Source: Candidatus Omnitrophota bacterium (lineage in GTDB: Bacteria > Omnitrophota > Gorgyraeia > JAFGHF01). Taken from it: DNA of 64,000 nucleotides. The notes beneath the pieces were generated by a model. The model saw only the letters and a list, made by a program, of their open reading frames with translations, had not been told where the DNA came from and made no database searches. The position numbers and the translations under genes were made by a program. This document shows positions 9,101 through 48,100 of this stretch, one piece after another (position 1 is the first letter of the stretch; every line of letters starts with the position of its first letter). The stretch is from contig JBHPFV010000001.1 in the NCBI GenBank assembly GCA_042571705.1, positions 46,630-110,629 of the forward strand, in the 5' to 3' direction.

Positions 9101-12100
9101 TCGGGCAACAGAGAATAGGACTGCCGACCCTAACGATAAAGATTATCTTTATGGTGGTCCGGTAGTGATTAATTCCATCAATGAGCAAAATGTGGCTGCT
9201 TTTACAGAAATCCTCACTGAGCAGAGTCTGCGGGATATTTCGGTGATTGTCCAGCCTCATCCCGGGCTAATATCTAAATACCTAGAGTGGGAAAAGTTAA
9301 CGGCGGCACAACTTGACAGCATTAAGCATTGCGTAGTAGCGCTCAAGGGATTAATTCCTGAAAGAGATATTTACATCGATCCGGGCATCCAACCAGTTGG
9401 GATGTATGGATCAGGATACGGGGTAATTGCCCTAACTCTGTTAAGAAAGATTAAGTCTGATCCTAAACTGGCGAATGTAAAAACCACGGGTGGATTCAGT
9501 AATGTAGGTAACAAATTAGAATTGTATAAAGATGTGAAGGAAAAATTTGAATCGGTCAAGCATATGAAATCTAAGCTGGCGCAGGCAAGTGTGATTATGG
9601 CTATGCTTTATCGGTCTTTAGACGCCGCCTTAATCGACCCAACAGACAGCGAGCTAATGGAGAGTATCAATATGGCTGGCCAAATCAATAAGGTCTGGGA
9701 GCAGTTGGAAGTTGAGGTTAGCAATCAGGAATTTCCTCTTGCTGACGAGAAATTGAGCGAGATCATTGATAAATATAATATCAGTATTGACGAAGAAAAG
9801 AAAGACCTGATCAATCAGGTTTGCATGCTGATGCTTATCGCCTCCAAGGCAGATCAGACTGATAAGTCTATGCTTGAGCCTGATTGGCAGCCTGAATGGG
9901 AGCCAAAGGTAAGCGCAGAAGACAGCGCTGCTAAGGCCCAACGCACGCTGCGGGCGGCCAGGGTAGCCCTGCTCAAGTCGGAGTACGGCGTGCGTAATCT
10001 ACTGGATGAATTTATCTTCGCCGAGCCAGTCATTGCTGAGCCGGAAGAGGATTCCGAAACCGAACAAGCGCTGGGCGTATCCGCTTTACCTATTCTAGCA
10101 TTCACCGACCCGCTATCAGTAGCTTTAGTTGTTTTCTTTTTGGTTTATGTAACATGGATATTTGTGGACTGGGCGTATTTCGAAGGTATGCGGCAGTTTG
10201 CCAGCTTTGAGCCGGTTGAATGGAAGGATATGCAGCCAGCGGTTCTATTTGTCAGACTGTCGAGTGGTTTGGAAGAATACCACAGGCTGGATGCTTTACG
10301 CGGTTATAATACCTTCGGCGCGCTGGCCAGCGCCTTAAGAAGTAAACAATTTTTACAAAAATTTGCTCACGCTAATAGATTAAACAGTCCCGAGTTTGTC
10401 TTTGAAAGTGAGGATGACTACCCTGATTTTGATGTGCATCTGGCCGATCTTTCCCGAAAGCCAGAGCAGGCTTCTATAGAAGAGTATTTAAATAATTTCC
10501 TCAGTGAGAAAAATATCCAACCATTTATGGTCTGCGTATCAGCCACCAGCACTGAACTTGACGAGGCCAAGGAAGTAGCTAGAGTTTCGGCTGAGATTAT
10601 GCCTGAGGCTAAGCGAGTGATCGGCGGGGCACATGTTTCAGTAGCACCTAATGGCTATTTACGCAAGACAGCATACCAGATTGCCTGTATCGGCGAAGGG
10701 GTAGAAACCCTGACCGAATTAGCTTTTGAGTTGAATGTTCAAGGCCGGCGCAGGCCGAAACTATCTAAAATTTCAGGCATTGCTTACAAAACCGCAAAAT
10801 TTTGGATACGCTTAACTCCGGATAGGATGCCTCAACTTAAGCTTAATGATTATCCTTATCCCTCAAATAGCTTAGATTTGTTTGTTGATAATTGGGAAAG
10901 CGTTGAGGAAAATAAGAAGTGCGTAATTCCGATATATGCCGGTTCAGGCTGTCGATACAATTGCGCCTTTTGCGCTCAAAAGGCAATCTACAAAGGAAGA
11001 ATCAGAGAGCGCAGCGCAGTTAGCATCTTTTCCGAGTTAAAGAAGTTACACAAAAAAGGTTTTAGAATGTTTAGGATGCTTCAAGAAAGCTTTCTCAATA
11101 ACAAGGACAGGAACAAGGGCAGGGTCGAACGATTTTTAGAGTTAATAGAGGCAGAAAAAGCCAAAAATGCAGATTTTAAGTTTAAATGGCAAGCAGAAGC
11201 CAGGGCCGACCAATTTGATGATTATAATTTATTGCGCAGGATGAGAGACAATGGATTATGGGGTATTGCGATAGGCTTAGAAACAGGCGACCAGGCGCTC
11301 CTTGACTCCTTAGACAAAAAAATCAAGCTTGAACAGGTGTCGCGGTTAATCGAATGGTGTGATGAGCTTGGTATCGATATAGTGGCTTACTTAATGGTTG
11401 GCCTGCCTAATCAAGATTGGCAGAGTGCGTTAAAGACAGTCATCTTCTTCAAAAGGAATCTGCCGCGTATTATTTATATTAAAATTAATCCATTTATTGC
11501 TGCTGCCTATCTAGGTACTAGACTCAGCAGAGACGGCTCAATAAGAATTATTAGAAAAGCAAAGAACAGCCTTGATTTACCTGTAAGCACTGAAACCGAT
11601 GCGAAGACTTCTGAAGAAATAACCGAAGCATGGGAACTCCTGAGTAAGTTCAATGTCGCCTTTGAAGCAATAACTAGAGTTGTTGTAGTAGACGGAACAG
11701 ACCTTTACGAAGTGCCTTTAGATAAGCCAACCACTTTAATAATTAGAAGGACTATGCGAGATCTTGTTATCCGGGCCCAGCCCAAACTTACGGCCAAGAA
11801 ACGCAAGCAGGCATATCAACAAATAGTTAAGCACGATGTAGCCGCAGATGTGGATATTGGTTTTGAGCGCGAACAACTGGCCACAAGGCTGTTTACCGAT
11901 TTTATTCTGGATATAAATTTTGCCAATGGATTTAAGGCAATGCGGCATTTCACTGTCGTCAACCGGATCAAATGGATGCTCCTCTGCGCCGCTATCTGGG
12001 GATTAAAGAATAGTGAATTTGATACTATAGAATTTACACAAGACGAAGATACGTTAGGACAAAAGCTCAACAACTCATTAGAGGTAGTTAGCCTTAAGGA

Positions 12101-15100
12101 GCTGAATGGATTGGTAAGCGCAGTTGATCAAGAGGAAACAGCAGTTCCGGATATAGCGCAACACCTCCAAGAGTTTACCGCTCAGCTAGATCTTGATTTT
12201 ACTTTCGACAAAAGCGCCGGAAGGCTAATTTTGGCCAAAGCTGAAAAAAGCGAACAAGCAGTGCTGGGTATATCGATTCTACAGATTATGATTCCTGTTG
12301 GCCCAATAGCATTAGCTCTATTTATCGCCTTAATCTTAACCTGGCTGTATTTTAAGACCGTTTCTCAAACCAATCGGAGAAGCCTGCCCGCCAGGTATAC
12401 TCTTGGGCAGGCGGGTGTCCTAAAACCAATCCCCGCCTGCCTGACAAGAAGCAGGGCGGGCAGGGGAAAAGTGTACCCTGGGCAAAATCGTAAGCATCCG
12501 ATGCAGTCTCTGCTTGGTGGCGGCATAGTCCGGGCCAGTGTATCATCCGGTTCAAAAAATACGGAAACAGAAACCGCTCGGTCTAAAAGTCGTCGGAAGC
12601 GCATTGAGGCAATACGAGAAATGGTGAAAGACAAGCCAGATCATTCTGTTGAGTACGATGAGATAGTGCGATACTTACATAACCTATTTGATGATACTAG
12701 CGTAAAAAAACTCACAGTCGTACAAGATTTTAGAATTGAGCCAACCTTAAAACCTCTGAAAATAAAAATTAAAATAAAACATGAGACTTTTCCAGACACG
12801 CCGGCGCATAGAGATGCAATAGTTAAACTGATGGAAGATTTGCCAAGAGGCACCAAGTTGACTTACGAAGAAATAGCAGAAAAGATGAAAAAACAAGGTT
12901 TTGATAGTTCCTTCAGGAGAGTCATGCGCGAATTTGGCAGCAATGATGCACGTCTTAAAAAATTGCGTCAAAGAATTAAAAGCGAAAGAATTGAGAGAGC
13001 AATAGAAGCCAAAAGACGCAGAGGCGAAACAGAGGCCTATTTGAAACCGTTGCCGCCAAGGTCGATTACCTATGAGCAGTTAATAAAGATACTTATCGAC
13101 AAAAAAAATTGTGTAGGACTGAGACTCAAGCAGGTGCAATCAGACTTTGATCATGAGCCGCGCCTGCAGAAGCTACGCAATAGAATCAGGCTGGTTCATG
13201 TCGGAAGGAGCCTTAAGCCGCTAGGACGATTTAAATTTGATTTCATTGGCCTGAAAGCAAGAGGAATACTGCCTAGATTTTTAGTGTTATCAATGAACAA
13301 TTGGGACAATGAGAAGGCAGCTAAGCATTTTGGTGTTGGTTTTGAGACATTTATAGGGCAATGCGTAACGCTCAAAATTAACGAGATGCGCAATCCTGAA
13401 CAGGGGCGCAACAAGATTAACCTTGAGCAGTGGCAGATAGAGCAGCTCAAAGATAGGCAGGCTACGGCACTTGCCTATCATCAGGCCTGGGAGCTGGCCA
13501 ATGGCGATAAGAAACAAATGGCCAAATTACTGGGTATCAGTCGTAGTTGGGTGAGCAACCGGATGGGAAGGCTCGGCAAAAATTTCGAAAAAAGCCTTGG
13601 CCCGAATATTGAGCTGCGTATAGCAAAGGAAATCGGGATTCTTAATGTCTGCAAAAACCAAATTACACCTTCTGAATTGGCGGCTAAGTTACATGAGAAG
13701 CCTGTTTACAATAACATTCCTTTGGCCCAACTGGAAAAATTGGTCTGGCAGGATGCCTTGGGCTTCAAAGATATTTGCGCCCACCGCAACTTCATCTTTG
13801 CTGAATGGGTGCCGGTTGAGATTAAAAAACCGAAACTAGGTGGCGCTAAAGGCCAAGTAAGCCCTCTAAGGAAACCCCTAGACCCAAAAGAGGAAAAGTT
13901 AGCGAAAAGGGTAAATAATGCCAGAGCGCTTTTATCCAGCTTAGAGCGTTTTTATCAACACTATTTAATTCCGAAACAAATTGGCATCCAGAATGATAAG
14001 CAAAACATCACCTGTTTGTTGATGATCGAGACCATGTTAGGTTGCTTAAAAGACATTATCCAGGATCATATTATTAAAGAACCAACAATCAAGCAACTGG
14101 GTCAGGATCTAAATGTAGACACTGTGGGCCTGGAAAAAAGAGCAAAAATAGCAAGTAAGGAAATTAGAAAGGGGCCTACAGGTAGCATGAAGACATTAAG
14201 CAGGCGTAAACAAGAAATATGGGATGAGATTAAATCTGCTGATGAACTCGATGAAGGCCATCTTAAGTGTGAAGACGCAAAACCAATAGTGCCGCCCATA
14301 TTTTGGATTCCTTATGTGGAGAGATTGCGAAAAATACACAAAATATGGAAATCGCTTCATGCTCAAGAGGAAGGAGAAAAAGAAGCTCACTGGGAAAAAG
14401 CGCTTGCACCCGGTCGCGCTGCCGCGTCCGGCTTTATAAAGCCCGACTTTTTGCCTGAGGAAGACGTGCCATACAAAAGATCAAATTATAAGAAAGACTT
14501 AGAGCGAGCGCAGAAAGCTGTTGCGGAAGGATTAAAGTCAGCGCAGAAAGCTGCGGCTGAGCCCCGGAAGGCTGAAGATACTGTTGAGGGATTAATGCAA
14601 AAAGCTCAGCAGGAGTTAGGAAAACTCAAGTCTTTAGCGGCAAAAGGCGTCGGTGGTATGGAATGGTTTGAGAGCGTTAGTAGAATAGAAAACATGCTCG
14701 ATCGACTTGATGCGGTAGCTCATCAGCTTAGTAAAGAAAGTGATATTGTTTTTCTTTGTTACTGGAAATCAAATCAGCGGGTAAGACTGGAAGAACTGGC
14801 TGAGAGGCAAGAGAAACCAAAGCGACACTCAGAGGATGATGAACAGTTTACTGCTCAATTAGCGGCCTATGAAGGAATGACATATCCAGTGATGTTAGAA
14901 ACCAGCTTAGCGGAAGGAAAAATTAATTTTGCGGTTACCCTGGTCGCAAAAATCGAAGTTCGCGGATGGGCGGATACTATTCCCGGCTGGGGTGAGCTTA
15001 AGGCTCGTGTAGTACGGGAGGCAAAGAACTATCAGGCCTCTGCTAAAAAATCCGCCCCAGACACAAAGTGCCTCTTATTGCCGCTGGCCTGGATTGCCGC

Positions 15101-18100
15101 ACCCGGCCTGCAGCCTGCCACCTGGCAGCTAATTCTTTTCACCTTGTGTCTATTCCTCATCCTTTGGACCGTTTCTCAACTTGACCCTGCGCTTAAAGGA
15201 ATTGCGCAGGCTAGGCCCAAAAGCCTGTCCTTTAGGAGCTACCCTTGTGGGTTAAATCGGGAAGTTGAGCTGATTTCAAAGCGGAACCTCTCTCCTGACA
15301 CGGGAGAAGCAAAAAATTGGCTGCACCAAATGACCAGGGCTAATTCAGGTAGTTTGCCAGGAACAACAACTCCAGATGTCCAGGGAGAAGTCCTTAAAGT
15401 TGATAAATCGAGGTTTGACTTGGGAGAGGCTATTGATCAGGTTGTTCAGTCAAAGACCACAAAAGGACGCAAGCAAAGGGTTGTGGAAGTGCGCGGCGAT
15501 ACAGTCCAATTGCAATATCAGCAAGCAATAATTTCCGATATCTTAACTACACTATTAGGAATTATGTTCACGGTTATAAGAGTTAGCGATAAGCTAGCCA
15601 TTTATGTCAGGAGCGGAGAGGAGAAAGTCCTGATTAGATTATTCAGCACTTCCCGCAAGGTGAGTAGACGAAGATTAGAAAGTGAAATTGAGCAATCTGG
15701 CATTCAAGACAAATTGGATGATATCTATGGCCGGCTTTATCCGGAGATATTTAGAAAAGCAGGCCATGATTCCGCAACAGAGATTGTGCTAACGCTTACT
15801 TTGCCGATGAGCGATCCCAAAGCTTTAGTCAGGGCTGGCGCCCGCCACGGCATGATTATTGCTGATCAGGACATACCAGATCCAAGAATTAAGAAGTTTA
15901 TGGACATTATCCGTCAGCACGGTGCAGAAAACCACTACATAGTCTTTGGCGGGCATGGCCGCAATATGTTTTCCGGCCGCAAGGGTGTTCCAGCTGATTT
16001 CGATGTATTAGTTAGAATTAATGCAAGCGAAGTTGATTTATTAAGCGCAGGTTGTGAAGTTAGTACTTTATTGAAACAAGGATATGTGACAGCAGAAGAT
16101 TTACAGTTACTAGGCGCCAACGAAGCAACAGTGCTAAAAGCAAGATTAGAACAATTAGAGAATGAATTAGTTGGTGTGTCTAAGAAAGGCAGTACTTATG
16201 CTCGTCTGCGTGCAGCTTTTGAAAGACATTACGGAGATCGAAAGAGTTTTAGAGGCGAAGAGATGCAGACTCGCAGGATAGTCAGATATCTAGCACATTT
16301 AGAGATAGTCAGGCGTTATGTCTTGCCTATGACCGAAAGGCTTGAGAAAATTTTCGATGTGGAAAACGGGGCTATTTCAGATTATATTAGTCGGGATAAC
16401 CGACTTGTTTGTTTATACGCCCGGACCAAGCATTGCCATATTGATGGCGGCTGCCTGGATTATGCGGGATTTGTTACTTCAGATGGACTATTTCATCAAG
16501 CCCGTGGGCGATTTCAAATAATTGATGGCAATCAACCCCGCGCAGATCAACTAGGTATATGTTGCAATGGGGTGGTTTACGATCCCCTCGGAGCCTTAGA
16601 AGACTATCGGCAAAGAACTATAAAGCTAGAATCCAAATTAAGCGAAAAGGACAAAATTAGAATAAGGCAAGTATTGCGTTGTTTTAGAATTAAACATTTA
16701 AATTTATTTAATCCAGATGATGAAGCGAAAACTGCAATGTATGATTTTTGTTCTAACGCTTCAGGCGTTTTCTTCAATTCAGCTTCTTGGCGAGCATTTA
16801 CTCAAAGGCATGCTTTATTAGATGAGGGAGTGAGGCAATTAGAGGGGCTGATATTAAAAAAGAGAATGATTGTCCGTGAGTTACACTTCGAAGAGGAACA
16901 ACATATTCAACGAGAAATAAACCAACAGATTAGGGCACTGCTTCAATATATAAAAGAAAAATCATCTGCCTGGCGTCTGGCCAATCAATTCTTAAGAGAA
17001 GATTTTGCCGCACTTGTTTTACGGCAGAATAACGCACCCAAAAATAGCTACTTAAAGGAAGAAGCCGAAAGAAAACTTATGCTTGGTTTAGAAAAATACC
17101 TTTATATTCCTTCTAATGCCGGGGCCCTCTTCTCTTATGCAGGGGTGTATCGATGGGTTCAGGATGTAAAGAGAGACCCGGTATTTGTAGCTTGGTATTT
17201 AGGTAAGATTTACCGGGCAGCGCTTCGGCCGGAGGATGTAAAAGAAGATTTAAGGCAAGCAGAATTTTTGCCTTTATTTGAAGCCCTTGGTATCAGTATT
17301 GACAATATGGAAGAAGAGGCGATTGATTATAGACTGGCCAGCCTGCAGGAGCCTATTACTTTGGAAGAGGAAATTAGACTTGCCGAATATATGCTGGCAC
17401 AAGGCCGCTGTCCTGAAAAGTGGCTTTACGTGCTCAGATATGCTTATCGACAAAGAGCAGTCCTGGATAGAGAAGAAGGCCGGCCTATAGCCGCTAGCCA
17501 GAATTTCAACAGGGCCATTGATTGTAGGATTACTTTAGCCGGATTACAGACGAAAGATAGACCACAGGATGCCGCGGAGCATTACTTAAGCGCCGGCAGT
17601 ATTTGCGAAGAGATTGCCGATTACAACAAGGCCAAAGTGCTTTATCTTGCCGCCTTAAGGATTCTGCAATGGGAGAGCGCTAAATCAGAAGACTTACCCG
17701 ATCTTCAATCTTATGCTACATGGAATCTCTTAAAAGAGACATTTGAGAAGTTATCGGCATTAGAATGTAAATACGGTAAGATGCATTTAGGTACCGAACA
17801 TCAAAAGAATGCTAATTTGGCCGCAATCGAGGCAGACAATGCTGTTCTTGCCCCAATCAGAGCAGAGCTTAAGGCTGCCGGCAGCTCTTTAAGCCCGCAA
17901 CAGCACTTAGTTAATATTATCATGAAAGATGCGGTCCTGAAAGAAGGCTTGGCAGCAGTTGGGCTCCTAAGACAACTCTCAGGTAAGGCTGCTCAATTTG
18001 GCCTGAGAGTGGCCAAGAGAACACTAATGCGCAGAACTACCAATCTGGACGCACCGCAAATAATCGGCGTAGACTCAAGGAAAGGTCGGCACGCGGATAA

Positions 18101-21100
18101 CTCGTGCCTCTTATTGCCGCTGGCCTGGATTGCCGCACCCGGCCTGCAGCCTGCCACCTGGCAGCTAATTCTTTTCACCTTGTGTCTATTCCTCCTCCTT
18201 AGGACCAGGTCCGGAAGCAATAAGGAAGTCCTGCCCGCCATGTTAAATCGGTGGCAGGCGGGTGAGCCAGAACCAATCGGGAAGGTGTCCCCTAAGCAAA
18301 ATCGCAAGCATCCGATGCGGTCGCTGTTTGGTGACCGAATAGTTCGGGCCAGGTTATCCGGAGCGGAAGACCAGGGCAATCGGGCAGAAGAATTGAGTCC
18401 CAGCCAGGTGCATTTTATTGCAGAAAGCGGTTTAGTAGGCAGAAGCCAAATTGATAATTTAATAGCGCGTGTTTCTATTTCTCAACCGGAAGGTGATCTT
18501 AACAGTTGGCCGGAATCAGTGTTCTCACATTTTACGCAGGAAGGATTGTTTGCCAGGCGTGCCCAAGCAGTGCTTGAGGCAGTTGAGTATTTGCCTGAAT
18601 CTGATTTGACTAAAGATATTTTCTTGGCACTAAGCGGGATGGGAGAAGCGGGTAGAATGAAATTGGAGATTACAGCAAGTAGGTTAGGAAAAAGCACTAA
18701 TTACTGCAAGCGACGTTACCAATGGAGTAAGCAGGTAGTTCTTATGATAGTAAGGAAACGGGATAGGGAAAAATTAAAAGAATTGTTTGAACAGCAGAGG
18801 GACTATCTTACTACTCCCAAGTATCGGAAACAGTGTGAAGAAGCAATTGAGGAATTGGACCGGGCATATTTTCAGTTGTTTAGAAAAAACTTAAGCCAGG
18901 CCAGTGAAAGATATGTCGGCATTGCTTCTTTATCTCAAGTCAAGTTTATGATTGATGAAGGTTACTTTACAGATGCTGAGCTTAAACAAATCCAGTCTGA
19001 CCGTGATTTTGTACATCTTTCTTTTGACGTTATACGGAAGTGGCAACTTGAGGCCATGGGCAGGCATTTGAAGGTTATTGAAAAAAGGACGAAAATTATT
19101 GCCGCAATTGCTTTTCTTCCCTCTCAAGATAAAACAAGAGACATTTTTAAATACTGTAATGGTTTTACTGATGAAGGCGTTGCCGTGAAACGTGAACAGG
19201 TAGCTCAATTATTGGGGAAATCCACAGAGTACCTTGATAGCAGGAACCAATTGGCTAAGCAAGTAGTTAAGGATATTGTTTTTGAGCGTAAAAAAGAGGC
19301 GGCGGGAAGGTTAATCAGTTTAAGAGATGGTGTTTATATGGCCCGGCAGAACCGCAATAAAAGAGAATATCAGGAAGCAGCCCTGGAAGTAACTGAAGCG
19401 ATAAAGGAACTGCATAGCGGGCTTGCGGGTGAGCTGCCTAGCTTGACAAGGGATTCCTCAACTGTACTTTCTGAACAAAAAGTAAGGTTTTTGCTGGTTA
19501 ATCGTTTAATTACAAGAAATCGGCTTAACCAGATTATGGAGGATACCGGTTTTATAGAGTATCCGGTAAGAGATGTTGTCACAGTATGTTTTCTGGACGG
19601 CTACTTATCAGAAGAAGCGCAACAGAAACTCGTAATAAAAGATAGCGGTGAGCGTGTGTTTAGTTCTGCCAGAGGAGTTACGCGCGCGATTAAACGATGG
19701 GTTAACGGCCTAGCTTGGCATAAGCTTGTTATTCAACAGGCAGAAGAAGTAGAAAGTTATGCCCGGAGATTTATGCCGCAGGCTGAAGGCGTGAGAAACT
19801 ATTTTCTTGAATTTAACGCTGCAAAATTACCTACGCCGCTATATGCGCAAGCGATAGAAGTTATGCGCGATTTTATTATTAAAGGTGAAGCAACGGGAGT
19901 AAGGAGCCTTATTGATTTTCGTCATTGGCTGGTCTATCAAGATCCACTGCGGAGGCCAAAATGGCGGGGATTAGTAAAAGAATTGGATGGTATTATTGCC
20001 GGGTTTGATAAGTTAATTTATAGCGAAAAGTCGCAACTGTCTGTTAACCCTGGTGAGTTCGTCTCTTACCACTGCGCAAGGTTTCTTCTGGAGAACGGTT
20101 TTGTTTTAAAAAGGGATTGGGATTCTTTAATGCAGGACCCGGTATTTTCTCGGAAGGCCGAGTTTGACGTAATACACAGGCTCTACTTTAGAGGCCAGGA
20201 CGCAACACAAATAATGGCCTGGGCTAAAGGTAGAGAAATCTTCGCGGGTATTACTTCTCAGCAGGATTGGGATGACTTAATTGCAACTTGTATCGGAAGG
20301 ATTGGCCAGCACCCGGTGATCAGAGGAGTAAGAGAGAGAGTCTTGAAGGTATGTGAATATTTACCGTTAAGCGATGACAGCCGGCCAATATTTATCGCTC
20401 TTAATGGGTTAAGTGGCGAGGGTATTCCCGTGGTTAGAAAAGTTTATGCCCGGGAAATCAAGCGGCATACAGCGTATTTATTGAAACGCAATGAAATATG
20501 TACAGCTGTAGTAAAAAGTGTTTTTTATGGAGATAAAAATAGTGCCAGGTGTAAGTTATTAAAAATTCATTCCTGGCTAGACCAGGACTTTTCCCGCAGT
20601 AGGGCACAGTCTCAAGCAAGCCAGCTTGAAATTAAACGCATCCTTTCGACTTTAGTGACGGCCTCTTTGCCTACTGTAAGACCGGAATTTATCCCTCAAG
20701 GCCTGCCAGCGGGAGCTAGGAGGGTGTTTTCTGTAGAGAGTGAGGTAAAAGACAAACCGGTTGTCGAAGTCTCTTTGCCCTTGGCCCCATCCGGCCGGAA
20801 AAAGCCGTTAGAGCAGGATAGCCCGAAAGTGCCAGAAGAAAAGTTAGCGTTACTCCATACGGAAATTTCCAGTATGTTACAGCAGCTGGATGCTATAGTT
20901 TATTCAGTTAGTGATGAGGAAGTTAAAACTTTATCAAACTGGCGCGCAGTTGATGAAAGAATAGCGTCTTTACCCGAGCCGGATAAATTTGAATATACCG
21001 ACCAAAGAGATAAACTTTTAGAGACGCGGCTTCATCTTTTTGAAAATTTAGCTTATACCTTAGCTTCAGCAAGGCCAGACGATATGAGAGATAAAAGGTT

Positions 21101-24100
21101 AAGCAAGATGCCAATGAAGGGAGGCCCTTATCGGCATACGCCCGTTAATCAGAGGCCTAATATCGCAACAATTCTCAGTAAGTCCGGTGGTCCGGTCAAG
21201 GGAGAGATAAAAAGAATGTTAAGGCAGCGAGAGCAACAGTTAGCGCCGTCCGCTCCAGACGACCAATCCGCTTTCGGGCTGCTGCCGGTTATGTTTGGTC
21301 CGTGGTCTTTGATGCTGGGCTGGGGCCTGGTGAAAATCCAGCCGTGGATGTGGGTAGTGTTGCTAGTAGTGGCAATGGCAAGTGTTCTCTGGAAGAGCTT
21401 AGTCAGGCATAGACAGCTGGCGGCAATTAGACTTAGCGGCAGACAGGTTAAGGTTACAGATGGGTTGGAGGCTGAAGATAGGCCGGACAAAGAACTTGTG
21501 CGCCGACTCAGCAGACCAAAACAGAACAGATCGCAGCTGCCCCCTGCAGAGGGCAGGCACGAGACACCGAAGGAATCATCCGGCCTGCGTTTAAACAGCA
21601 GCAATATCAAGAAGATTCGTGTGGCCGGTTTCACTGGTCCAGGCGGCCGGAGATTGGATTTTGTGTCTCTTGGATGGAGGCATAGTTTAGCTTTTAACCT
21701 TACATTATGGCATACTGGTTGGCATTTTCCCTGGCAACATGAACAAGCCCATAAAATTTTAAATGTAACAAAGAGTTATATACAGACAAAAATACAAAGT
21801 TATTTTGATCCTTCGCTCACCACTCAACAAAAAACCACACTGCAGACCATCGCATTCACCGATCAGCAGAAAAAAGCCCTGGCGCAAGATGTAGTCCAGG
21901 AGCTAGCTTGCGCGCAAGCTTATGCCCTAACCGATAGTCACAAACAGGCTATGTGTAAACTGTTAGGTGTTAGCACTACGCTGATAGATAATTGGATTAA
22001 AAGGAATGAGAGAAACTTAAAAAGGATATTAAAAAGTAATGTTTGGCAGCGTCTGTACAAAGAAATAGCTATTTTAGATGCGGCAGATGGTGGGATGACC
22101 ATTTTTGAATTGTACAATAGACTGCGAGCAGAACCAGAGTTCAAATATGTGAAGCAGGACTTAGTATTGCTCGATGTTTTAGGATGTAAGAATCTTCTTG
22201 GTCATGAAAATCTCATTATAGCCAGATGGCATGAAGAGAAAAACATTATAGAGATAAATCAACAAGCCCTAAAAGCGCTACAAGCCGAGTATATTTTTAA
22301 CAATCCGAAATCTATGTTGAAAATAGAAATATATAGAGCAGGCATCTGCAATCTACTTAAACAACTGGAAGGGGTAGAGGATTTTGTGCAAAGATATTTC
22401 AACTCGGATGCAACTCACGATCAGACTAGTGCACAACGCCGAGATTGTTTACTCATTAGCTGGACCTGTGTACAACTTATAAGGACAATTTTTGACAATA
22501 TCTTAACTCGGCTAGTGAAACTTAACGGCCAAGAATATACGCCCTTAGGTAAATTAATCGGCGTTCAAGCAGCAAACAAAGCGGACCAAATATATGATCA
22601 TTTATCAGCTTTGGCGGAAATATTGCCCAGGCCAGCTAGAACGGCGAAACCTGGCTTCTCTTCAGTTGGTATGGATAGAGCTATAACATGCCCCTCACTT
22701 TGGGAGGCATGGCAAAAAATTAACGCCAGGTTAGATGAGCAAAAAACAGCAAAACCGGTCTCTGTAGTTAGGCAGACAAGGTTTCCAGGAGCAGATGCAA
22801 AACCCGCCCCTGCCGCCAAAATACCGCAACCTCCTGCAGAAAGACTAAAGGAGGCCATAATAAGAAGGCTGAATGGTTTTAAAGAGACGCAATTTACAAC
22901 AGTTGAGTCTTTAGAAAAGGCCTATTGTAAGTTCGAGAGTACTTTGGAAACCCTGTCAGGTAGAAAACGAAAGTTACGCTTAACTCGCTTTATTACAGGG
23001 CAAAAGGAAGAACTATTGAAGGAATATAGCAACAAGCTGGAAGCGTTAAGAAAGGAAGAGAGAACCGCAGGCGAGACGTTAAGTCAACCAGGTGGTGGCA
23101 TAGGGGCCGAGGAGACAGGAGCCTGTGGCTTGGGGATTTATCAGGGTGGCAAAGTGGCGCCGGATGTACGGAAGGCAGCCGATGAGAAGATAAAAGAATA
23201 TGCCCGGGAAGAGAGGCTGAATGATTACAGAGATGCTCCGGTGGCAGGATATTTGGGTGAGGGCGGAAAAGATATTTGCCAAGTGATAGAAAAGGCTTGG
23301 CCGGTTCAATTGAATGTTCAAGTGGTCATGCCTAAGGGGACGATTTCTGCAGAAAGCTTGTTAGCTAATTCATTTATCTGGCAGGACGCTGAAACACAAA
23401 ATAGATTTGTGCTTAGCTATCTCAAAGGAGGAATTCTCTACCTGCCTTTAGGTCTGTTCATTCTGCTGGGTAAATATCAGCGCATTGATTTGTTAAGGGC
23501 AATATTGAAATTTGAGAAGGGCAATATCGGTAAAACCGATCAGGATAAGGAGGACAAGAAGGAAGCAGAGCGCCTGGCAAAAGAGGTCTGGAAGTTATAT
23601 GAATTAGAGGCGCACAAGATCAATGGCCAGGTTATCCATTCCGGTGAGCTTAAGATTACGGTTCCGGCTGACTTTTCACAATTGCCGATTGATGTTGAGG
23701 TCAGCCAGCCTGAAAATACAAAGCTGGTTTTAAGCCCGTCATGGAGTTTGGGTATATTGCATGCCATGAATGCCGGGGTGCTGGCTTTGGACAGCAGGCG
23801 GCTTTTATTCGTGCGGGTGGTTAAGCCGAATTCCGGTGATTGCGACTTTGATTTGCGGCGATCTGAAATCTGGCTGTTTGAGCATATTCCCGCTGCTAAT
23901 AATGATCAGAAGGATGAAGTTAAGCTGATTAAAGCGGGGATGCTGATGCCGGATGATGAACAACTTGTTCCTGAAGGAGCGAGCCTTGAGGCCCTGGAGG
24001 ATGCCAGGGTCATTACCAGAGAGACTGACTTCCAGCGCCACAAGGTTTTTGTATACTTGACCGCGGTGTCTAAAGACGGTAACTGGCATTCAGCGTTGAC

Positions 24101-27100: not shown

Positions 27101-30100
27101 CCAGGCCATCAACCCAATTCCACTTTTTATGCTGACCTTTATCGCGGGGGATCTCTCCCCGCCATTAGCATCGGCAAGTGTTACGTTTACAGTTTTAACC
27201 CTTCTGGCAGTTTTTGTAACGTTACTTTATTCCCGCCAAATCCTTCAAATCATCCAAAAAATCATCCAGTCCAACCCGCGGCGGCACCGAAAAGACATCC
27301 GCGGCCGGACAATTGCGCTATTGTTGTTATTGCCGGCGCTGATAGCGATGTCACTAACTTTAGTAGCCGGCGCCATTTTCTTGCATTGGTCCAGGGTCGG
27401 AGGCGTGCTTAAGCCCCTGGAGCGGATCGGCTTTGTAAGCGGTGAGCAATGTAAGGTCACGATCTGGAAATTTAAAACCATGTTAGATGAACCAGGGCCT
27501 GGATTTGCTCGGTCAAAAGATCCTCGGATCAACACTTTGTTTGGAAGAGTAATACGGAAATTAGGCTTAGATGAAATCCCTCAAATCATACAGGTTCTTT
27601 TGGGACAAATAGCCCTGATTGGCATTCGCGCAAAAAGTGACGATTGTGAAGATGATGGCCGTTTTTCCGACTGGGTGGAACAATGCAGGAAGAGTAAAGC
27701 CAATACAGCTATGTTTGCCATAGCCAGGAAGCTGCCATTTGGTCCGATACTGCACAATAATGTTAAGACCCATGAAGACCTCTACGAGTTGCAATTCGAT
27801 ATAGAAGCCCTGCAAAAATTTCCGCATTCGAACGCCATCTATGTGATCTGGAGGCATTTGCTCTACGCCCCCATTCATTTCTCATATGCAGTGCACTACA
27901 AATTGACCAGCCCAAAAGCATCGAAAAGTGAAAGAAATAAGAGTGCCCTGACCCTGCGAAGCACCTACGATACATTCAGTTGGATTCCGTGGAAGAGATT
28001 TATTGAGATTGTGGTGGCGCCGTCCTGGGAACTATTTAAGACCTTCAGGCGTGATTATTTTAGCCGGCACGAATTTAACGAAGATGAGCAGATAGCTATG
28101 ATGCAAAGACGCCTGCGGCTACAGGGTATTCAAGCAATACAGGAGATGACAATTTTCGGATTGGTCTTTGGTTTGTTGGGGGCTGCGACCGCCTCCTGCT
28201 TACTTTGGCCTTCCGTTGCACCCTGGATAAAAGTATTTGCAACATTAGCACTTTCTTTAGTCACTGCCGCTTTGTTCAACATCATCACCCACATGATACA
28301 TAATATTCGTTATCCTCGGGCAGTGTTGACAACTAGAGAAAAGCACTCAGGCCACTTTATTGCTAAACTGATAGTTAGCGATGAAGATATTCGTAGAGTA
28401 GGCAATGAATTAGCAGCGGTTTATGAAAAGGCAAGCCCGGACTACCTTTCACGAATCTTTCCGGCATTGCTTAGCAAGGTACAAGACATTGAGCGTAGAG
28501 AAGAATGGATTAGCCAGCTTAAGGCAGCGGATAACGATTTCAGGAAACTATTATTTATTATGAGAAAAAGACATCCAACTAAATCATTAGCAGCGCTGAT
28601 CCGTAGTTTATCAGGGCTTGTGCAGGGCATGAAAGATATAAAAATGCTTCCTGTTTGCAAAGAGTTAATGAGTGCTTTTGTTGCCAATAGGCCAAAAGGA
28701 GATTTATGCTCGTTCATTAATTGGCCTCTTAGTAAGTTAGTACGGGAAATAAAGGACCCGGAGTTGTTTCTGGCGAAGGTTTTCTATGTTCCGGTAAAAT
28801 TGGGTTTATGGAGGGAGGGAACGAACCGGAGAGCCTTGGATAGGGAAGCAAAAGAAGGTCGAATAGTCAAGATAGGGCGTAAGTATTGGTTTCCTATTAA
28901 AAATCCGTTGAGACCTTGGAATATTATTCACAACCGAACTTTAATATTTTCCGGGCCCAAGCGCCAGTTTGTATATAAAGGCTCAGGCCACTCAGTAATG
29001 GCCACACCTTTTTCTTTAGATAATGATAGGAAACTAGGGATTATGTCCAGTTTTCGAAAAGGTAAAAACATACAACTTTTAACAGGTGGTCTTAGTCAGA
29101 GTGATTCCTCTATGGATGTAGCTATATTATTAAGAGCGGTATATGAGCGCTTAAGAAAAAGAAAAGATCCGGTATTCCAAATGGCTCGAAAGTATGGTGC
29201 TAAAATAGATATGTTTTTAAACCCTATTGTCGTGGTAACTTTAGAAGCCTTGCCAGTAATATTAATGCAGGAAGAGTCAACGTTGCCCAGTGAGACTAAA
29301 AAGCTGCTTACATACTCTATTGCTGATGAATCAATCCCTGAGTCTATAGCATTACCTCAGAGAGTGAAATTAATTCGTACGAAAAAATTTCTTGATTTTA
29401 TTAACATACCCGAGGTTCAAAATGGAAAACCAGTAGAAGAAAGAGATCCGGTAGAATATGTATATAGCGTTCCGGTTAATTTAAGAATGGAGGAAATGGG
29501 TTGCATAAAAGACATTGACCCCATGTTTAGGCATTATGGGTACAAAGTAGAGTATAAGAAAAATGGCTCTGTCGAAGATGTGCCTGCAAGAGGTAGCGGA
29601 GATATCCGGGATGGATATGGAATAAGGTTCAAAAAAGATTATGCTATTGAAAAAGTGTTTAGGAATGGTAAAGAGGTAAACTTTAAACGGGCAGCCGATG
29701 AGGTAGTATTTTCCTTTGCTGCCCGCTGCGCTTTGTTTATCCATATATTGCATGATGAGCTTAATGCTCGCGCGCATAGCGAAGATGGAGGAATATTTAG
29801 GCAGCATAATTGTAACCCGATCACCTTCTTTGACTATGACACAATAAGATACAACTTAAACAGTCTACAAAGAAGAGAAGCAGACTTTAAAGATGTAAGT
29901 GATGCTAAAGACCAGATTATAACCTTGGCCAAAAATTTAGGTGTGCATAAAGACCGCGCCATAGAAGTGTTTAATGAAGTACTAACAGCTGGATCAAAAA
30001 AAGCTAAAAAACCAACAGAACCACATACTAGAGACAGGTTATCAAACCAATCGCAACTGCGTTCCCAATCCGTCAATCTATCCGCCTTTTGGTTTGGTGG

Positions 30101-36100: not shown

Positions 36101-39100
36101 AGTCTTTGGGGCCAAGGGAGGCTATCAGGAGTTCTCAAAAGTAACAGAAAGATTACGGAAAGAGCCTGAAGAATTAAAACAGGCCAAGCTGGGCAACGAT
36201 AGGCAGAGCAGCCAATTACCAGGGATAATTAACTTGGCGCTGGCAGAAGATATAGCTCAGGGTGATCCTACCAGCGAACTGGTCTTTTCAGAAACAGCAA
36301 CTGCTAATGCTAAAATCATAACCAGGGAAGCTGGCATAGTCTGTGGTTTGGAGGCAGCAAGATTAGCTTTTCAAGCTGTAGATGACAAGATTAGCTTTCA
36401 GACTAAGCTCAGAGACGGGCAGGAAGTTGAGCAAGGCCAAATTCTTATTGAGTTAGAAGGCAATGCGCGAAATATTTTGATGGCGGAAAGAGCGGCTTTG
36501 AACTTTTTAGGCCGTCTTTCCGGGATTGCCAGTTTGACCAGCAAGCTTGTCAATAGAATTAAACCATCGAAGGTCAAAATTATGCCTTATGAAACGACCT
36601 GTGGGCTGAAGGAGCTCGAAGAAGGTGCTGTTCTTTGCGGAGGTGGGTTTATCCGTCCGGGGAAAGAGGTGCCGGTTGTAACTATGGATAATCTGCGCAA
36701 AATTGTTGCCAGCGGCGTAGCTAAGATTGCAGTGCGAGAGTTGACTCTTTCAACAAAAATACTAGACGTGGCTTTAGATTTGTGCGTATCCGAACCAAAT
36801 GATCGAAGCCGGGTCTGGACGGGTGATAATGAATCAGGCCAAGCCACATTTGCCTTTGCCTTTTTTGGCTTGGGCCTGCCCGCCTTCGGCGAGACTTTGC
36901 CGGTCCTGGGGATGGTTGCGGCGCCGTTGGTGTGGGTGGCGGTTGTGGCTGTGCTGGCTGTGGCGGCAGACTTTGAGCCTTTACTTGGGATGAGCGGTGT
37001 AGGTCTGGCTATGGGGGTAGTGGCAGGATTAGGTGACAGATGGGGAGAATCGAAAGTTTTTCATGCTAAAACTGTAATAAAGCGCCTCTTAAATGCAGAC
37101 CGAAATATAAGAACACCGGCTGCCTTGTTTGAAAGTCTAAGGACTGAGGCCCCCGATGTATTGGCGGCAATACCACCAGTTCGCGAAGATGGAACATTTA
37201 ACTATACGGTTCAAGAAAGGCGAGAAAAATTGCAAAACCTGGTATCTCTGGCTGCCGAGGAATTACGGGTAAGAATTAATTTAATTGTGGCGAGTTACAA
37301 AAGAAATATTGCTGAAGCAGCTTCTGGGGAAGAATTGAAGAATCTTTATAGGAATTTAGGTAAAGTCCTACATCCTGACTTTAATCTTGGTAATGAAAAA
37401 ATGGCCATTGCTGCCTTCATAGAGCTTGCAAGTGCTGTGGAGAGACGCTTAGCAAGCGACTTACCAGAATTTACTAGTGATATTAGAGCTTTAGCGAAGA
37501 AATGGTCAAAATTCATTACTTTTCTTGGTTGTGGTGAAAGCATGCCTTTAATGGAGGGACCAATTGGAGAGCTCTTAAAGAGCGAGGGAAGTGTAGTAGA
37601 AGAAGCAAAAAGGCTTTCTTCTTTAGCTGTGGGTAATATTGCCTATATAAGCTTACCGAAACAGGAAAATTCAAAAAGCCTTTCATTAGTGGTCTTACCA
37701 AATATGATGATTAGGCGAATACTCGTCTTAGGCCAGTTGACTGCCGAAACCCCATTGCCATATATCAGCATAGAGCCTCCTGTAATCGGATCTACGTTAA
37801 CTACTGAGGGCATGCCGACCGATAGCTGGTATATTCCCTACTTCTCCGTGGCAAGTATGCTTAATCCGCCTGTGGAACATATCGCATTGGAGGATCTCAG
37901 GCAACACAGGATAAAGGCTGTAAAAGAGCCTCTTTATACTGTAAGAGGCACTTTTGGCACTCCTTTCGTAGCCAGAATTGGTGAGCTGTTTGAATGTAAT
38001 TACGAAGACGGCGGTTTCACCACTTTAAAAAATAAGAAAACACTTACCAGTGTAACGGTAATAAGCTTGAAAAGAGGAAATTTGTACAGGCGCCTTACGC
38101 TTTTTCCTTACGGTGAGGGCTCAATTGATTCGTATCATTTAATGCTTCATCCTAGTGAAAGAAAAGTCCAAGGTCAAATAATTAATGTAAGTGTGAAGAC
38201 AGTACAAAAAGGTGTAGAGGGGGGATATATCAAGATTAGAAGAAAAGTCTTGCCTTCCAAACAAACCCACATAGTTGTAGAGGGCGGCAAAACCAATCTG
38301 AGAAGTGTACCCGGCTTAGATGACGAAGCCATCAAAACAGACAATAGTGCCCTCTCTGTCTTCGGGTTGGGGGGCTTGGGCCTGTTTGGTGGCTGGTGGG
38401 GTGTTGTTGGTGTGGCGGCTGTGGTTGTGGGTGTGCTAATTATGGATGCTCAACGTGAAAGGATGGTTTCAACCTTCTTCTCAAGGGTGGCAATACGTTT
38501 CTCTAAGGCTTGGAAGTCTTGCTTGCGCAGCATATCTGATAAGGCTTTGATGGCTAGAGAGTTGTCCGCCACCATCTGGGCAAGTTTTTCTATGTCGGTT
38601 TTTACATTCTTTAAATCAGCGCGAATACCAGCTATTTCTCGCTGTATTTCTTTATTGGACACTTTAATTATGGTAATATCTTCAAAATTTCGTCCTACTT
38701 GTTCCCGAGTACCCCTAACTTCTTCTTTGAGTTCTCCTACATCTGCTCGGACGAATTCTAAGCCTTCACCAAAAGTACGAAATTGCGACGACAAATCCTC
38801 TAATATTACACCAAACTCTCGATCTTTACTGAGATCTTTACCTTTCTTGGCCACGCTATTCTCCTTATTTGAATTTGGAAATTATGCAACACAAATCATA
38901 TCACCAAGCCCTGTCTCTGTCAAGGGTAAATTTGGAAGTCAGGATACCCTATCCGTCTTAGGGCTGGGGGGCTTGGGGTTGATGAGTGTTGACTGGGTTA
39001 GTGCTGGTTTGTTTTTTGGGGTAATGTTAGTGTGGTGGCGGAGAACTAATAGTGAGTCTTTACCGGTAGGCTTCGCGGCGATGACGGACACGAAACACGA

Positions 39101-45100: not shown

Positions 45101-48100
45101 TGAATTCAGAGAAAGACCAGGTAAAGCCACAGATGATGGAGGCAGTCACGAATCTCCTGAAACTCTATCCGCCTTTTGGTTTGGTGGGTTGGGACTGATT
45201 GGAGCCGAGCACTGGGTAGTGCTGGCTGTGGGTCTAGGTATTATGTTTGGGGGGACACTTCTCCGATTGGCTCGAGAAACGGTCTCCGATTGGCTGGAGA
45301 ACCGGTCTCCGTTTGGGCTGAGACCTGGTCTTATCAATGTGCGATTAGTAGGCTGTTTGGTATTGGGGATATTAGGCATCGCGGCTCTATGGCTATGGGG
45401 CGGCCCAGGTACAGGGCTGGCTGTGGCGGCGGACTTTGAGCCTTTGCTTGGTGTAGGCGGTGGCGTAAGTTTAGCTATGGCGGGGGTGGGGGTGATTTAT
45501 GCAAGCTTAAATGATAAAGAGGGGCAGATCATAAGTGCTGTTGAGAAATTTTATAATGAACATGGAGAGAATGTTTATAGAAACACTGCAGGAGGAATAG
45601 GGGGGAGATATAAACCATTGCCATCAAAAAAGGCGATGGAAGATTTATGGTTACTGTGTAAACAGTTAAGAATACGAAAAGGAGACAAATTTTATGATTT
45701 TGGATTTGGGGATGGTAGAATTGCTGTTATGATGAGAGCGCTTGGTCTCCAAGCGTATGGCGACGAAATAGATGTTAATTTAGCCAAGAAAGCAAAGGTT
45801 TTATTAGGGAAAAATCTTAAGAAGTATTCATTTTTAAGTAGCCTTGTAAACGAAGACAATGTACATCTACAACACGGTGATTCCTTCAATCGAGATTTAT
45901 CTGAATTTGATATTGTCTTTTTCTATTATACGTTTCCTATTCCAGATTGGACCGGAGGAAATCAAGATTTGGCTAGAGAAGTGTTTAAACAAAGAGTATG
46001 GGCAAAGCTGATTGGCAATATAGACGGAAAAGGCCTTAAGTCTGGGGCACAATTTATTACTTTCTGTCCTCCCGAGAGCAAATATTGGTTAGATGACTTT
46101 GATGAATTTAATGTTATGCATTGTGGTAATTTCGGGATATATGAGCTGAAACCGCAGGTTGGGGATGGAGACTTTGGTGGCTGGATGACTGATCCAATGT
46201 CTGGATTTGTTGGTATGCATCAGGCGGGTTGGCGTAAGAAAGCAGAGGAATCGCAACCGCCCCCAGAAGATATTTATTCTATAGCAAAAATAACCGTACC
46301 GAAAACTGCACATAGGCAAAAAGGAATACACCACAGGCCTTCGCTAGCTCTTGTTGATACTTGTGGAAAAATATATAAGCTATTTTCTGAAAATATTATA
46401 ATTAAATTTTCAAGGGGTGAGGAAAGTAGTGGCGATGAGGCTACTTATCGTCATGGAGGCATTGCAGAGTTTGTTTTTAAAATAGGATCCTCAGGTGGAT
46501 ATACAGGGCCATATATAATTACTATCGAAGGGCCTTTTAAGCAAGACCTGCTTGAAGAGGCAGCCAAGATTCTTGCTACCGTTCTAGGGGACGAAAGATT
46601 TAAATATGGTTTTCATTCAGACCTGCCACTGAGAGAGGAAATAGATGAAAAGATTAGACAACTCAGAACATCCATTGCCAAAAATAGGGGTGACGACCAA
46701 TCTTCAGAAGCCCTATCCGCTTTGGGGCTGGGGGGCTTGGGGTTGATGGGTGGCTGGAATGTTGCTATTTTGGCTGTGGTGACTGTAGTGGTTATGGCTA
46801 TTTTTAGCTTACGGCAGAAACGAAGGGGTGATTATCGTGACAATGAGGTTACTTTAGCCTCAAGAGTAGATATGCGTTTTTCCAGGGCTTGGAGTTCTTG
46901 GCGGTCAACTTTAGTTTTGGCGAGATTATCAATGCTTTGGGTAAGTGTCTCAATTTTAGCGGCCATATTCTGGATTGCCGCTTCTAGAAGGGTAATCTTT
47001 TCGGTATTCTTGCCAACTTGCTCATACGTAGCATCAAGCTTAGAAACCATTTCTTCTTGTCGTTCGCCAAATGCCTTGAATTCACTGCGAAATTGGTCAA
47101 TTAGCGTACCTACTTCCGTGGGGCTAAATTTAGCTTTGGCAGGTTTGCTTGTTCTGATGGGTTTTTTCATGGTGAGGTATATAATAAGCCTGCCGAGCGC
47201 AAAAGTCAAGCGAAAAATAATGCCGCTAACCGTTAAAGGTGAGCTAAATGTACAATTACTTGAAAGGTTGGTTGATCAGGCTGGCAGAAACGCCGGATTT
47301 GTGCTTGATGTAGGGATTATAGCCAGGATTGTTGGCGGAATGAGAGTTCTAAGGTCAGGAAAACGCAAAGATATAGATATTGCTCTTATTTTGCAACATC
47401 CTTTTCAAGGTGGTGAATGCAGCAAGTTTATTGAACAGTTTAAACAAATAGTAGAGAAACATCAAGGTGTAGAGTTAAAGAAAAGAGAAGTGAGTGCAAA
47501 GGAAGGGAGGCATTTTCCGTTTCATTATCTTAAAATTACTTCTTCTTTAGCAGGACAAGTAAAAGAGATAGAAGTTAGGGATATATTTCTTATACTTGAC
47601 TCAAGATTGATTTTATCTGCCCTTGCTCCACCTTCACAGGTTCTATCAGACCAGACGCTCGAATCCCTATCCCATTTATCTTTCAAGAATCTTATTACTT
47701 TAGAATATTATCTTGGTGATTTAGAAATATACACTAAGATGTTGGAAGAATTCAAGAGTAAAGTTCAAGATGGCGGCGATGTGATCGTTGACTTCGATAA
47801 GCATCCTTCTTATGCTGAAAGGGCAAGGACGCATATAGCGGAAGCCAAAAGATTAATGGAATGCAGTGAAAGGGAGTTGGCTCAGGATGAAAAATTTCGT
47901 CAGGTTCATACCCGTTATACCTGTTTTATCTTTAATGTAGAAAAAAGGGTCAGACGTCAATCTCCGAGACCGACGAACTGGCGGGGGCATCAGATGTTAC
48001 CGTCGGGAGTGGTGATGACACAAGAGATGCTGCAGAACAACGGATATGCGCAGGGGTGGCAGCAAGGCAGAGCTGCTCGAGCAGCCAATGCATGGTTTGG

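Follow-up and report, generated by a model that had tools for sequence, protein, structure and literature searches.

An 82-nt palindrome in a linker of a giant Omnitrophota gene is probably made of two small REP-like insertion hairpins

The DNA analysed here, 64,000 nt of contig JBHPFV010000001.1 from a Candidatus Omnitrophota bacterium (positions 46,630 to 110,629; GCA_042571705.1) and called the window below, contains a giant open reading frame (ORF) of 52.9 kb, which carries an 82-nt palindrome at 12383-12464, in a linker that follows one of its enzyme modules. In this study, we concluded that the palindrome consists of two small hairpin units, that a third unit lies at a second module junction of the same gene, and that these units are probably insertion hairpins resembling repetitive extragenic palindromic (REP) sequences and GC clusters, tolerated in a weakly constrained linker and not a signal specific to the giant gene. 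The palindrome would then be explained as two small insertion hairpins in an inter-module spacer, which takes away the reading as an attC-like site and that as a riboregulator peculiar to this gene. The units and the linker repeat that surrounds them (repeat Y, ~135 nt, present at junctions J3 and J5) are located as follows.

12383-12415, + strand: hairpin unit 1 (box A 12383-12392, 13-nt loop, box B 12406-12415), read as LPARYTLGQAG
12416-12431, + strand: 16-nt spacer, the apical loop of the palindrome, homologous to 18263-18278 (11/16 identical)
12432-12464, - strand: hairpin unit 2, inverted (box B' 12432-12441, 13-nt loop, box A' 12455-12464), read as PACLTRSRAGR
12465-12544, + strand: downstream block of repeat Y, copy 1, containing GCATCCGATGC
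18230-18262, + strand: hairpin unit 3, a singlet (box A 18230-18239, 13-nt loop, box B 18253-18262), read as LPAMLNRWQAG
18263-18358, + strand: homologue of the 16-nt spacer and downstream block of repeat Y, copy 2

Box A is CCTGCCCGCC and is the perfect complement of A', GGCGGGCAGG, while box B is GGCAGGCGGG and is the perfect complement of B', CCCGCCTGCC; every box has 10 nt and consists of G and C only except for one A or T, and the spacers of the palindrome are 13, 16 and 13 nt. These coordinates, complementarities and spacers had been given in an initial annotation of this DNA, and a direct check of the sequence found all of them correct. A' and B' occur once each in the window. Box A can pair with box B too, over 10 bp that include one C.A mismatch and one G.U pair, and each A-13-B is therefore a hairpin alone (-17 to -18 kcal/mol as RNA). 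The palindrome thus comprises two 33-nt units (CCTGCCCGCC-13-GGCAGGCGGG) in opposite orientation, 16 nt apart. Of all inverted repeats within 100 nt, it is the longest in the window, and its 82 nt fold as RNA with -49.8 kcal/mol, compared with -30.1 ± 3.3 kcal/mol for dinucleotide shuffles (z -5.9; none of 200 shuffles as good), and as single-stranded DNA (ssDNA) its two strands reach -28.6 and -27.0 kcal/mol, with z of -6.6 and -5.9, respectively. Within this doublet, all 20 stem bases pair, but the 13-nt loops match at ~4 of 13 positions.

At the second site, both 5' boxes and the 13-nt spacing are kept with a different spacer sequence, the downstream block is shared, and both copies of Y are translated in the frame of the giant ORF, in agreement with the initial annotation. 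The folding check proposed for both copies showed strong folding of the palindrome, as RNA and as ssDNA, but the whole second copy (18224-18361) folds no better than shuffles (z -1.35 and -1.8), with only its 33-nt unit above the background (z -3.2). What copy 1 has in addition to copy 2 is a block of exactly 33 nt (11 codons), B'-13-A', whose flanks aaccaatc|gg are contiguous in copy 2. Since the two sites differ by one whole unit, the copy that had been called half-deleted is better read the other way, with one extra unit inserted in copy 1, and units elsewhere act as discrete insertions.

The downstream blocks (12465-12544 and 18279-18358, 80 nt, both including GCATCCGATGC) are 81% identical, and repeat Y has no clear terminal inverted repeats. 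Between the copies, all 20 stem positions are identical and the other 113 aligned positions are 74% identical. The mismatches are spread evenly over the codon positions (5/6/9 and 3/8/3), and the ratio of non-synonymous to synonymous rates (dN/dS), 0.94 over the full repeat, falls to 0.45 when only the downstream block is considered, which has 9 non-synonymous and 6 synonymous differences. Because the mismatches are even and dN/dS is close to 1, the similarity of the copies is a matter of DNA-level common descent with little protein-level constraint, plus stem upkeep of some kind. The downstream block, caaaatcg...cgggccag, had been counted as part of a dispersed element, but it is present at the two window sites only: its word GCAAAATCGNAAGCATCCGATGC had 0 matches in a metagenome scan, and its word AAGCATCCGATGC was absent from 120 listed genome loci of the family. 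The block is therefore a local paralogue. A candidate degenerate copy near 21516 (PKQNRSQLPPAEG) was dropped, as it rested on a weak local alignment.

A 10-nt direct repeat, AACCAATCGG, brackets unit 1, at 12371-12380 and at 12423-12431 continued by GG at 12465-12466. Its copies are read in different frames (TNR and PIG), and unit 2 is inserted within the second one; upstream of unit 3, the corresponding copy has a degenerate sequence (AGCAATAAGG). This bracket may be a target-site duplication, or it may be due to chance.

The unit is a member of a family found in many other genomes. The pattern CCTGCCCGCC-N(8-20)-GGCAGGCGGG, scanned in one genome per species, has matches in at least 120 loci, which is a lower bound for the size of the family, and ~14 matches would be expected by chance in the entire genome collection (our own arithmetic, assuming equal base frequencies). 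Among the matches listed, to which all counts of genome units given here apply, 106 are in loci of at most 58% G+C, and the loci belong to Bacteroidota (~36), Ignavibacteriota/Chlorobiota (~18), Desulfobacterota (~11), Patescibacteria (~9), Planctomycetota, Chloroflexota, Omnitrophota (4) and others, with at least 10 phyla in all. Viral contigs contributed 27 more unit sites. The stems are identical throughout, and the loops vary (8-20 nt), giving units of 28-40 nt. Some loops recur across phyla (gctttgcttt, gaacaagttcttt, agtgccaggca/gat and gcacaaggcttt) between unrelated flanks, and identical whole units, for example the one with loop gaacaagttcttt, are present in different phyla.

Three perfect GC-rich hairpins, two made from the same boxes and one scrambled with equal base counts, were used as controls in the viral contigs. 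They had 18-27 sites each, compared with 27 for the real pattern; in viral contigs of at most 58% G+C, however, the control patterns had 1-6 sites each and the real pattern 15. The site length was a multiple of three in 21/69 control sites and in 25/27 sites of the real pattern, and no control site had a loop sub-family in common with the genome matches. Given the low-GC placement, the length bias and the loop sub-families, the real, imperfect pattern represents a specific family rather than a background of arbitrary GC-rich hairpins.

It had been anticipated that further copies would exist and would be mostly intergenic, and both points held in other genomes: by a crude ORF classification ~28% of the units lie inside ORFs, and the rest are mostly between unidirectional genes. 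Inverted doublets are rare, with only a few pairs among the ~106 units listed. In a metagenome scan for B..B', nearly all of the 120 matches were plain perfect hairpins, and there was one full A-B-B'-A' doublet (L144, 5005-5060, a perfect palindrome A-4-B-12-B'-4-A' with a 24-bp stem). The inverted doublet is the defining form of REPINs (PMC3116915), among which it predominates and is better conserved, and the REPIN geometry of two inverted REPs with a short spacer in one long hairpin is indeed present at 12383-12464 (-50 kcal/mol). The idea that the doublet is the normal form of the family was nevertheless rejected on account of this rarity, and the two-stem 82-nt geometry, taken initially as a conserved design, is therefore better regarded as a local accident of two adjacent units.

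Outside the window, the units look like discrete insertions from comparison with related sequences. In RNase J of a gammaproteobacterial metagenome-assembled genome (MAG), the unit-coded ARLPAPDRRDGGQG is exactly the 14-residue gap relative to Bacillus RNase J1 (3zq4), and in IleS of the cultured Niabella hibiscisoli the 13 unit-coded amino acids (aa) PARRSSGSAQAGG fall in a gap relative to 8c9d. In locus L087, a duplicated 5' half of tRNA-Arg is interrupted by a 38-nt unit; the words on its two sides, ctggata and gagcacc, adjoin each other directly in an intact tRNA-Arg 330 nt away, and there is no target duplication. By eye, similar in-frame units were seen in MurD, an RluD-like protein, PheS, aconitase, pirin and an S9 peptidase; for the S9 peptidase (L019), the PDB alignment did not cover the N-terminal region.

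Locus L087 has its own arrangement at 657-1068, where the partial 5'-half duplicate of tRNA-Arg(ACG) is followed by an 85-aa GIY-YIG ORF (759-1013) and then by the intact tRNA. It looks like a small GIY-YIG element integrated in a tRNA gene, with the unit in the D-loop of the leftover fragment. An association of the unit with GIY-YIG proteins, an idea taken from this locus, was rejected, as there was no further match in 120 loci. In three other loci (L002, L038 and L117), the unit is nested near the apex of another hairpin word, itself widespread (gtcattgcgagcga...agcgaagcaatctc), with a position that differs slightly between loci. This nesting and the D-loop location in L087 suggest that insertion occurs preferentially in hairpin loops that are already present.

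The length of the units is biased toward multiples of three. Among units internal to open frames of at least 600 nt, 17 have such a length and 1 does not, and the overall figure is 68/106. The favoured reading phases are LPA...QAG and, on the other strand, RLP...GGQ (12/18); the LPA phase is open in 66 of the 68 multiple-of-three units, compared with 52-60 of 68 in the other frames. The 16- and 19-nt loops are mostly unrelated to one another, and a few sub-families are therefore not the cause of the length bias. Two other giant ORFs, each uninterrupted over the full length of its 8-kb locus, translate the unit in the phase used in the window, one in a Planctomycetales MAG (L012, two units) and one in the Omnitrophota bacterium Ca. 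Taenariivivens baikalensis (L053, with PTS-HPr and PEP-utiliser domains). The LPA/QAG codons are identical across phyla, which argues for shared DNA rather than a motif of the protein.

The gene that hosts the units in the window, and the parts of it next to them, are as follows.

84-52988, + strand: giant ORF, 52.9 kb, 17,634 codons (aa), with many hydrophobic helices and unrelated enzyme domains
10215-12134, + strand: module preceding the palindrome (aa 3378-4017), aligned end to end with free-standing B12-binding radical SAM proteins (~680-700 aa)
12285-12341, + strand: hydrophobic (membrane) helix 1 (aa 4068-4086), ~50 residues past the radical SAM module, with box A 14 codons further
18144-18200, + strand: hydrophobic helix 2 (aa 6021-6039), with unit 3 starting ~10 codons beyond its end

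The giant ORF contains ~65 segments of 19 residues that are strongly hydrophobic, and its domains belong to at least 10 different Pfam families (PIG-L, Pterin_bind, B12-binding with Radical_SAM, GH130, Bac_transf, two Diphthami_syn_2, QRPTase_N and others). With more than 10,000 aa, many membrane helices and many unrelated enzyme domains in an Omnitrophota genome, it fits the multi-enzyme, membrane-anchored class of Omnitrophota giant proteins ('Archaeovorin'-like). Two reports describe Omnitrophota giant proteins of this class, and neither mentions hairpins or palindromes (bioRxiv 10.1101/2023.11.21.568195 and 10.64898/2026.06.07.730766). The radical SAM module is 43% identical to protein P0002 (E 8e-177, residues 15-661 of 701), and its named best matches are from Desulfobacterales and Deltaproteobacteria MAGs. 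Since the module preceding the palindrome corresponds to a whole free-standing enzyme, the palindrome lies in an inter-module linker, which is the place of the intergenic spacer, were the modules separate genes; the full length of this module also makes the giant ORF look like whole genes fused via helix-containing linkers. The linker is rich in Arg and Lys and positively charged, and the G+C peaks (at least 0.58 in 120-nt windows, with a mean of 0.44) coincide with this junction and with other junctions. No homologues were found for a 500-aa stretch spanning the palindrome, the Pfam scan of the giant ORF gave no match over it, and the databases searched contained no orthologue of this junction.

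Considering these results, we have proposed a plausible sequence of events. The 33-nt unit belongs to a family scattered over many genomes, the stems of which are constant and the loops free to vary, and its members would be small selfish or neutral insertion hairpins. An intragenic unit can persist provided that it adds a multiple of three nucleotides and encodes a harmless peptide, and the units in the window may have been tolerated owing to a weakly constrained, positively charged linker, a length of 33 nt and a harmless translation. A linker segment of ~135 nt with one unit at its 5' end would have been duplicated to the second junction, and one of the linker copies may later have gained a second, inverted unit, creating the palindrome. 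The sequence comparisons establish the anatomy, the reading frame, the membership in the family, the indel of exactly one unit, the weak constraint on the protein and the module boundary, whereas gain rather than loss of unit 2, mobility and the lack of a locus-specific function are inferred.

Known element classes share several features with the unit. As in REP sequences, it is an imperfect GC-rich palindrome of 20-40 nt with a 10-bp stem and a loop of 2-20 nt (PMC3733652), dispersed, mostly between unidirectional genes and sometimes intragenic, with no target duplication (PMC3733652, PMC3116915). Like REP and REPIN sequences, it is found both singly and in inverted pairs, which form one larger hairpin. 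The 33-nt units of the window, with their 10-bp stems, have the size and shape of REPs (imperfect stem-loop palindromes of 20-40 bp). REPs are present in many copies per genome and are predominantly extragenic; the 64 kb studied here contain three units, all intragenic, and in other genomes most units are extragenic. REPs are also associated with RAYT genes, which encode Y1 HUH transposases, and Pfam scans of the giant ORF and of nine of the ten ORFs downstream of it gave no match to Y1_Tnp. Two REP super-families are defined by GTAG and CGTC tags (PMC3733652), whereas such an end tag was present within 7 nt of the end in at most 2 of 124 units, and the flanks in the window are gagaag and tgtcct. 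The unit also differs from REPs in its multiple-of-three length bias and in that about one third of the units of multiple-of-three length lie inside long open frames. Its stems are constant over many phyla, while REP families range from species-specific to common among distant organisms.

The SDR of cyanobacteria (Elhai et al., 2008) are reportedly very small hairpin repeats with precise insertions, nested in other repeats too; they differ from the present unit in sequence and host range. The Rickettsia palindromic elements are longer (~100-150 bp) and are not known outside Rickettsia, with sequences unrelated to the present units of 28-40 nt, which span phyla. They have in common with the unit an in-frame palindromic insert within ORFs, the proteins of which are probably still functional in Rickettsia (PMC3733652). 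The GC clusters of yeast mitochondria are short GC-rich palindromes in an AT-richer genome, mostly intergenic, with in-frame insertions in var1; their loops evolve fast while their stems persist, and they merge, shuffle and act as recombination and deletion hot spots (PMC8811140). The present family is like them in its GC-rich palindromes, mostly intergenic placement, in-frame inserts, constant stems with variable loops, and tandem arrays, in which whole units stand head to tail (L028, 78-156; L044, 4610-4720). Features of the mitochondrial clusters' own are that they are organellar and species-specific, often have AG/TAG terminal repeats (read as target duplications), and are in some cases bypassed in translation.

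The palindrome had been compared with attC sites and with REP-like or miniature inverted-repeat transposable element (MITE)-like sequences, and these comparisons fared differently. It resembles an integron attC in having a variable centre flanked by two inverted box pairs and in folding as a single strand, but it lies within an ORF, has 10-nt boxes, and lacks R''/R' core sites, an integrase and a cassette array; no core site RYYYAAC or GTTRRRY was present at the palindrome ends, the flanks of which are aatcggagaag and ggaaaagtgtacc (no GTTRRRY). The part of the claim that survived is that of a DNA-level structured repeat of the REP/MITE kind and not a protein domain, in line with the lack of a Pfam match or homologue, a dN/dS of ~0.9 and stems that are codon-identical in unrelated phyla. 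MITEs measure 70-300 bp and have terminal inverted repeats and a target-site duplication; the features of repeat Y to be compared with these are its length of 135 nt, its lack of clear terminal repeats and the 10-nt bracket of unit 1. The covariance-model search proposed earlier returned nothing, as Rfam 15 had no relevant match at E of at most 1 over 11500-19500, and no gathering-score match at the units in 16 loci. Full-text searches for the two box 10-mers found eukaryotic primers and promoters only, and keyword searches found papers on REP, REPIN and GC clusters; no publication describing the unit was found by either.

Several observations weigh against the reading of the units as tolerated insertion hairpins. 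The window has three units, all inside the giant ORF, with none in 11 kb of ordinary genes and spacers. Both unit sites are 10-14 codons after a membrane helix at a module junction, which might indicate a positional function; the two sites are paralogous, however, and the post-helix placement therefore represents one event. The identity of all 20 stem positions between copies would have a probability of 0.74^20, or ~0.003 (our own arithmetic), which implies some upkeep of the stems, and a purely neutral passenger would have no need of it. The multiple-of-three bias extends outside long ORFs (51 versus 37 units), where the tolerance of in-frame inserts does not explain it. The gain of unit 2 in copy 1, as opposed to its loss from copy 2, would need an outgroup to be polarised, and no transposase, target-site duplication or end tag was found at the units examined.

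One alternative is a functional mRNA element, in which a stable hairpin after the helix pauses ribosomes for co-translational insertion, or serves as a processing or stabilising site in the 53-kb message. We consider this unlikely. The folding of the palindrome (z about -6), the units 14 and ~10 codons past hydrophobic helices at two junctions, and stems perfectly kept between copies with diverged flanks speak for such an element, but the second junction has only a singlet of -18 kcal/mol, so the strong structure is not conserved, and the two paralogous sites are not independent. About 60 other helices of the ORF have no unit, and units occur in contexts as unrelated as a tRNA-fragment loop, RNase J and IleS. 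An intrinsic terminator would have a T-tract after its G+C-rich hairpin on the transcribed strand, and the units have neither a T-tract (tails ggaaaagt and tgagccag) nor a + strand terminator call; terminator-like sites in the region numbered 13, compared with 8.8 ± 3.1 in shuffles, and a promoter scan was likewise without excess over shuffles.

The units could instead be DNA-level recombination hot spots or sites that let the giant gene shuffle, duplicate or delete its junction segments and modules, as is reported of yeast mitochondrial GC clusters (PMC8811140). The junctions carry a further repeat, X, of 103 nt, both copies of which encode the same membrane helix, CLLLPLAWIAAPGLQPATWQLILFTLCLFL.

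15068-15170, + strand: junction repeat X, copy 1, helix-coding, ~98% identical to 18104-18206
18104-18206, + strand: junction repeat X, copy 2, with its end 24 nt 5' of unit 3

In addition, GACCGTTTCTCAA is common to the post-helix positions 12358 (J3) and 15167 (junction near 15170). Sharing X, Y (J3 and J5) and GACCGTTTCTCAA, the junctions are mosaics of DNA-level repeats, and the mosaic breakpoints are 13-24 nt 5' of box A at both sites, which speaks for recombination near the units. A second family of junction repeats, TATCCGCCTTYGG, coding LSAFGFGGLG, precedes hydrophobic helices at 30080, 35012, 41447 and 45167, however, and neither these four copies nor X have such a hairpin; repeat shuffling therefore does not need the hairpin. 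Units are found at two junctions only, no attC core sites were detected, and Pfam scans of the giant ORF and 9/10 downstream ORFs gave no integrase or recombinase domain. We regard recombination sites as an improbable explanation. A third CCTGCCCGCC, at 36875 (GLPAFGE), was rejected as a decayed unit, being better explained as a variant of the LSAFGFGGLG motif.

A protein-level explanation, in which ..LPA..QAG..GKV.P.QNRKHPM.SL.G..IVRA is a motif of the juxtamembrane linker, used for instance in processing or docking of the giant protein, and the palindrome is incidental, has rather little probability in our view. Both copies follow a helix in the same frame, the downstream block alone has the lower dN/dS of 0.45, and cleavage of giant proteins into pieces has been proposed in the literature. 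Over the whole repeat, by contrast, dN/dS is 0.94 with no third-position bias of mismatches, the LPA/QAG codons are exactly alike in other phyla and present in non-coding DNA too, the region has no Pfam match or homologue, and the inserted unit puts PACLTRSRAGR amid the supposed motif. Finally, a local inverted duplication of unit 1 by template switch, with outside matches being chance GC-rich hairpins and no dispersed family, is very improbable: arbitrary perfect GC-rich hairpins are about as frequent in viral contigs (18-27 versus 27 sites), but they are mostly in high-GC contigs and lack the length bias and common loop sub-families, the real pattern is conserved in its imperfect form (C.A mismatch), identical 33-nt units occur in several phyla, and the 13-nt loops of the doublet match at few positions while its 20 stem bases are perfect.

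Beyond the reading of the units as insertion hairpins in a tolerant linker, a wider proposal can be made, which as a whole is tentative and in our estimate somewhat doubtful. CCTGCCCGCC-N(8-20)-GGCAGGCGGG might represent an uncatalogued family of mobile GC-rich hairpins of 28-40 nt, the bacterial counterpart of mitochondrial GC clusters, spread over at least 10 bacterial phyla and viruses, with an unchanged imperfect stem and varying loops. Such a family would show a strong multiple-of-three bias, with in-frame insertion in essential genes (RNase J and IleS, and by eye MurD and PheS) and in giant-gene linkers, and its movement, apparently directed preferentially at loops in other hairpins, would leave no target duplication. 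Such units could be markers of the rearrangements at junctions that add modules to giant Omnitrophota genes, or could even promote them.

If this holds up, an imperfect hairpin that is common stem for stem to distant phyla and viral contigs, and in frame in core enzymes, would be a searchable family of miniature mobile DNA, and its multiple-of-three bias and preferred phases would provide a handle on how selection filters selfish DNA inside genes. A whole-enzyme module and a few families of DNA-level junction repeats would likewise make the assembly of Omnitrophota giant genes testable.

Some minor observations concern single loci and the surroundings of the junctions. In a Dehalococcoidia MAG (L091, 3076-3150) and in two viral contigs (L127 and L142), the unit stands right after the hairpin word ccctcttaaggtaagagggg and directly before GGAGTYATG, so that a ribosome-binding site and start codon follow immediately after it. 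In the giant ORF, the 854 residues after the palindrome (aa 4157-5010, 12552-15113) have no homologues among 1.84 billion representative proteins and form a complete 'dark' module between two junctions. The two copies of X start 3036 nt (1012 codons) apart, in frame, and homologous recombination at X could loop out or duplicate the intervening segment with the ORF unbroken.

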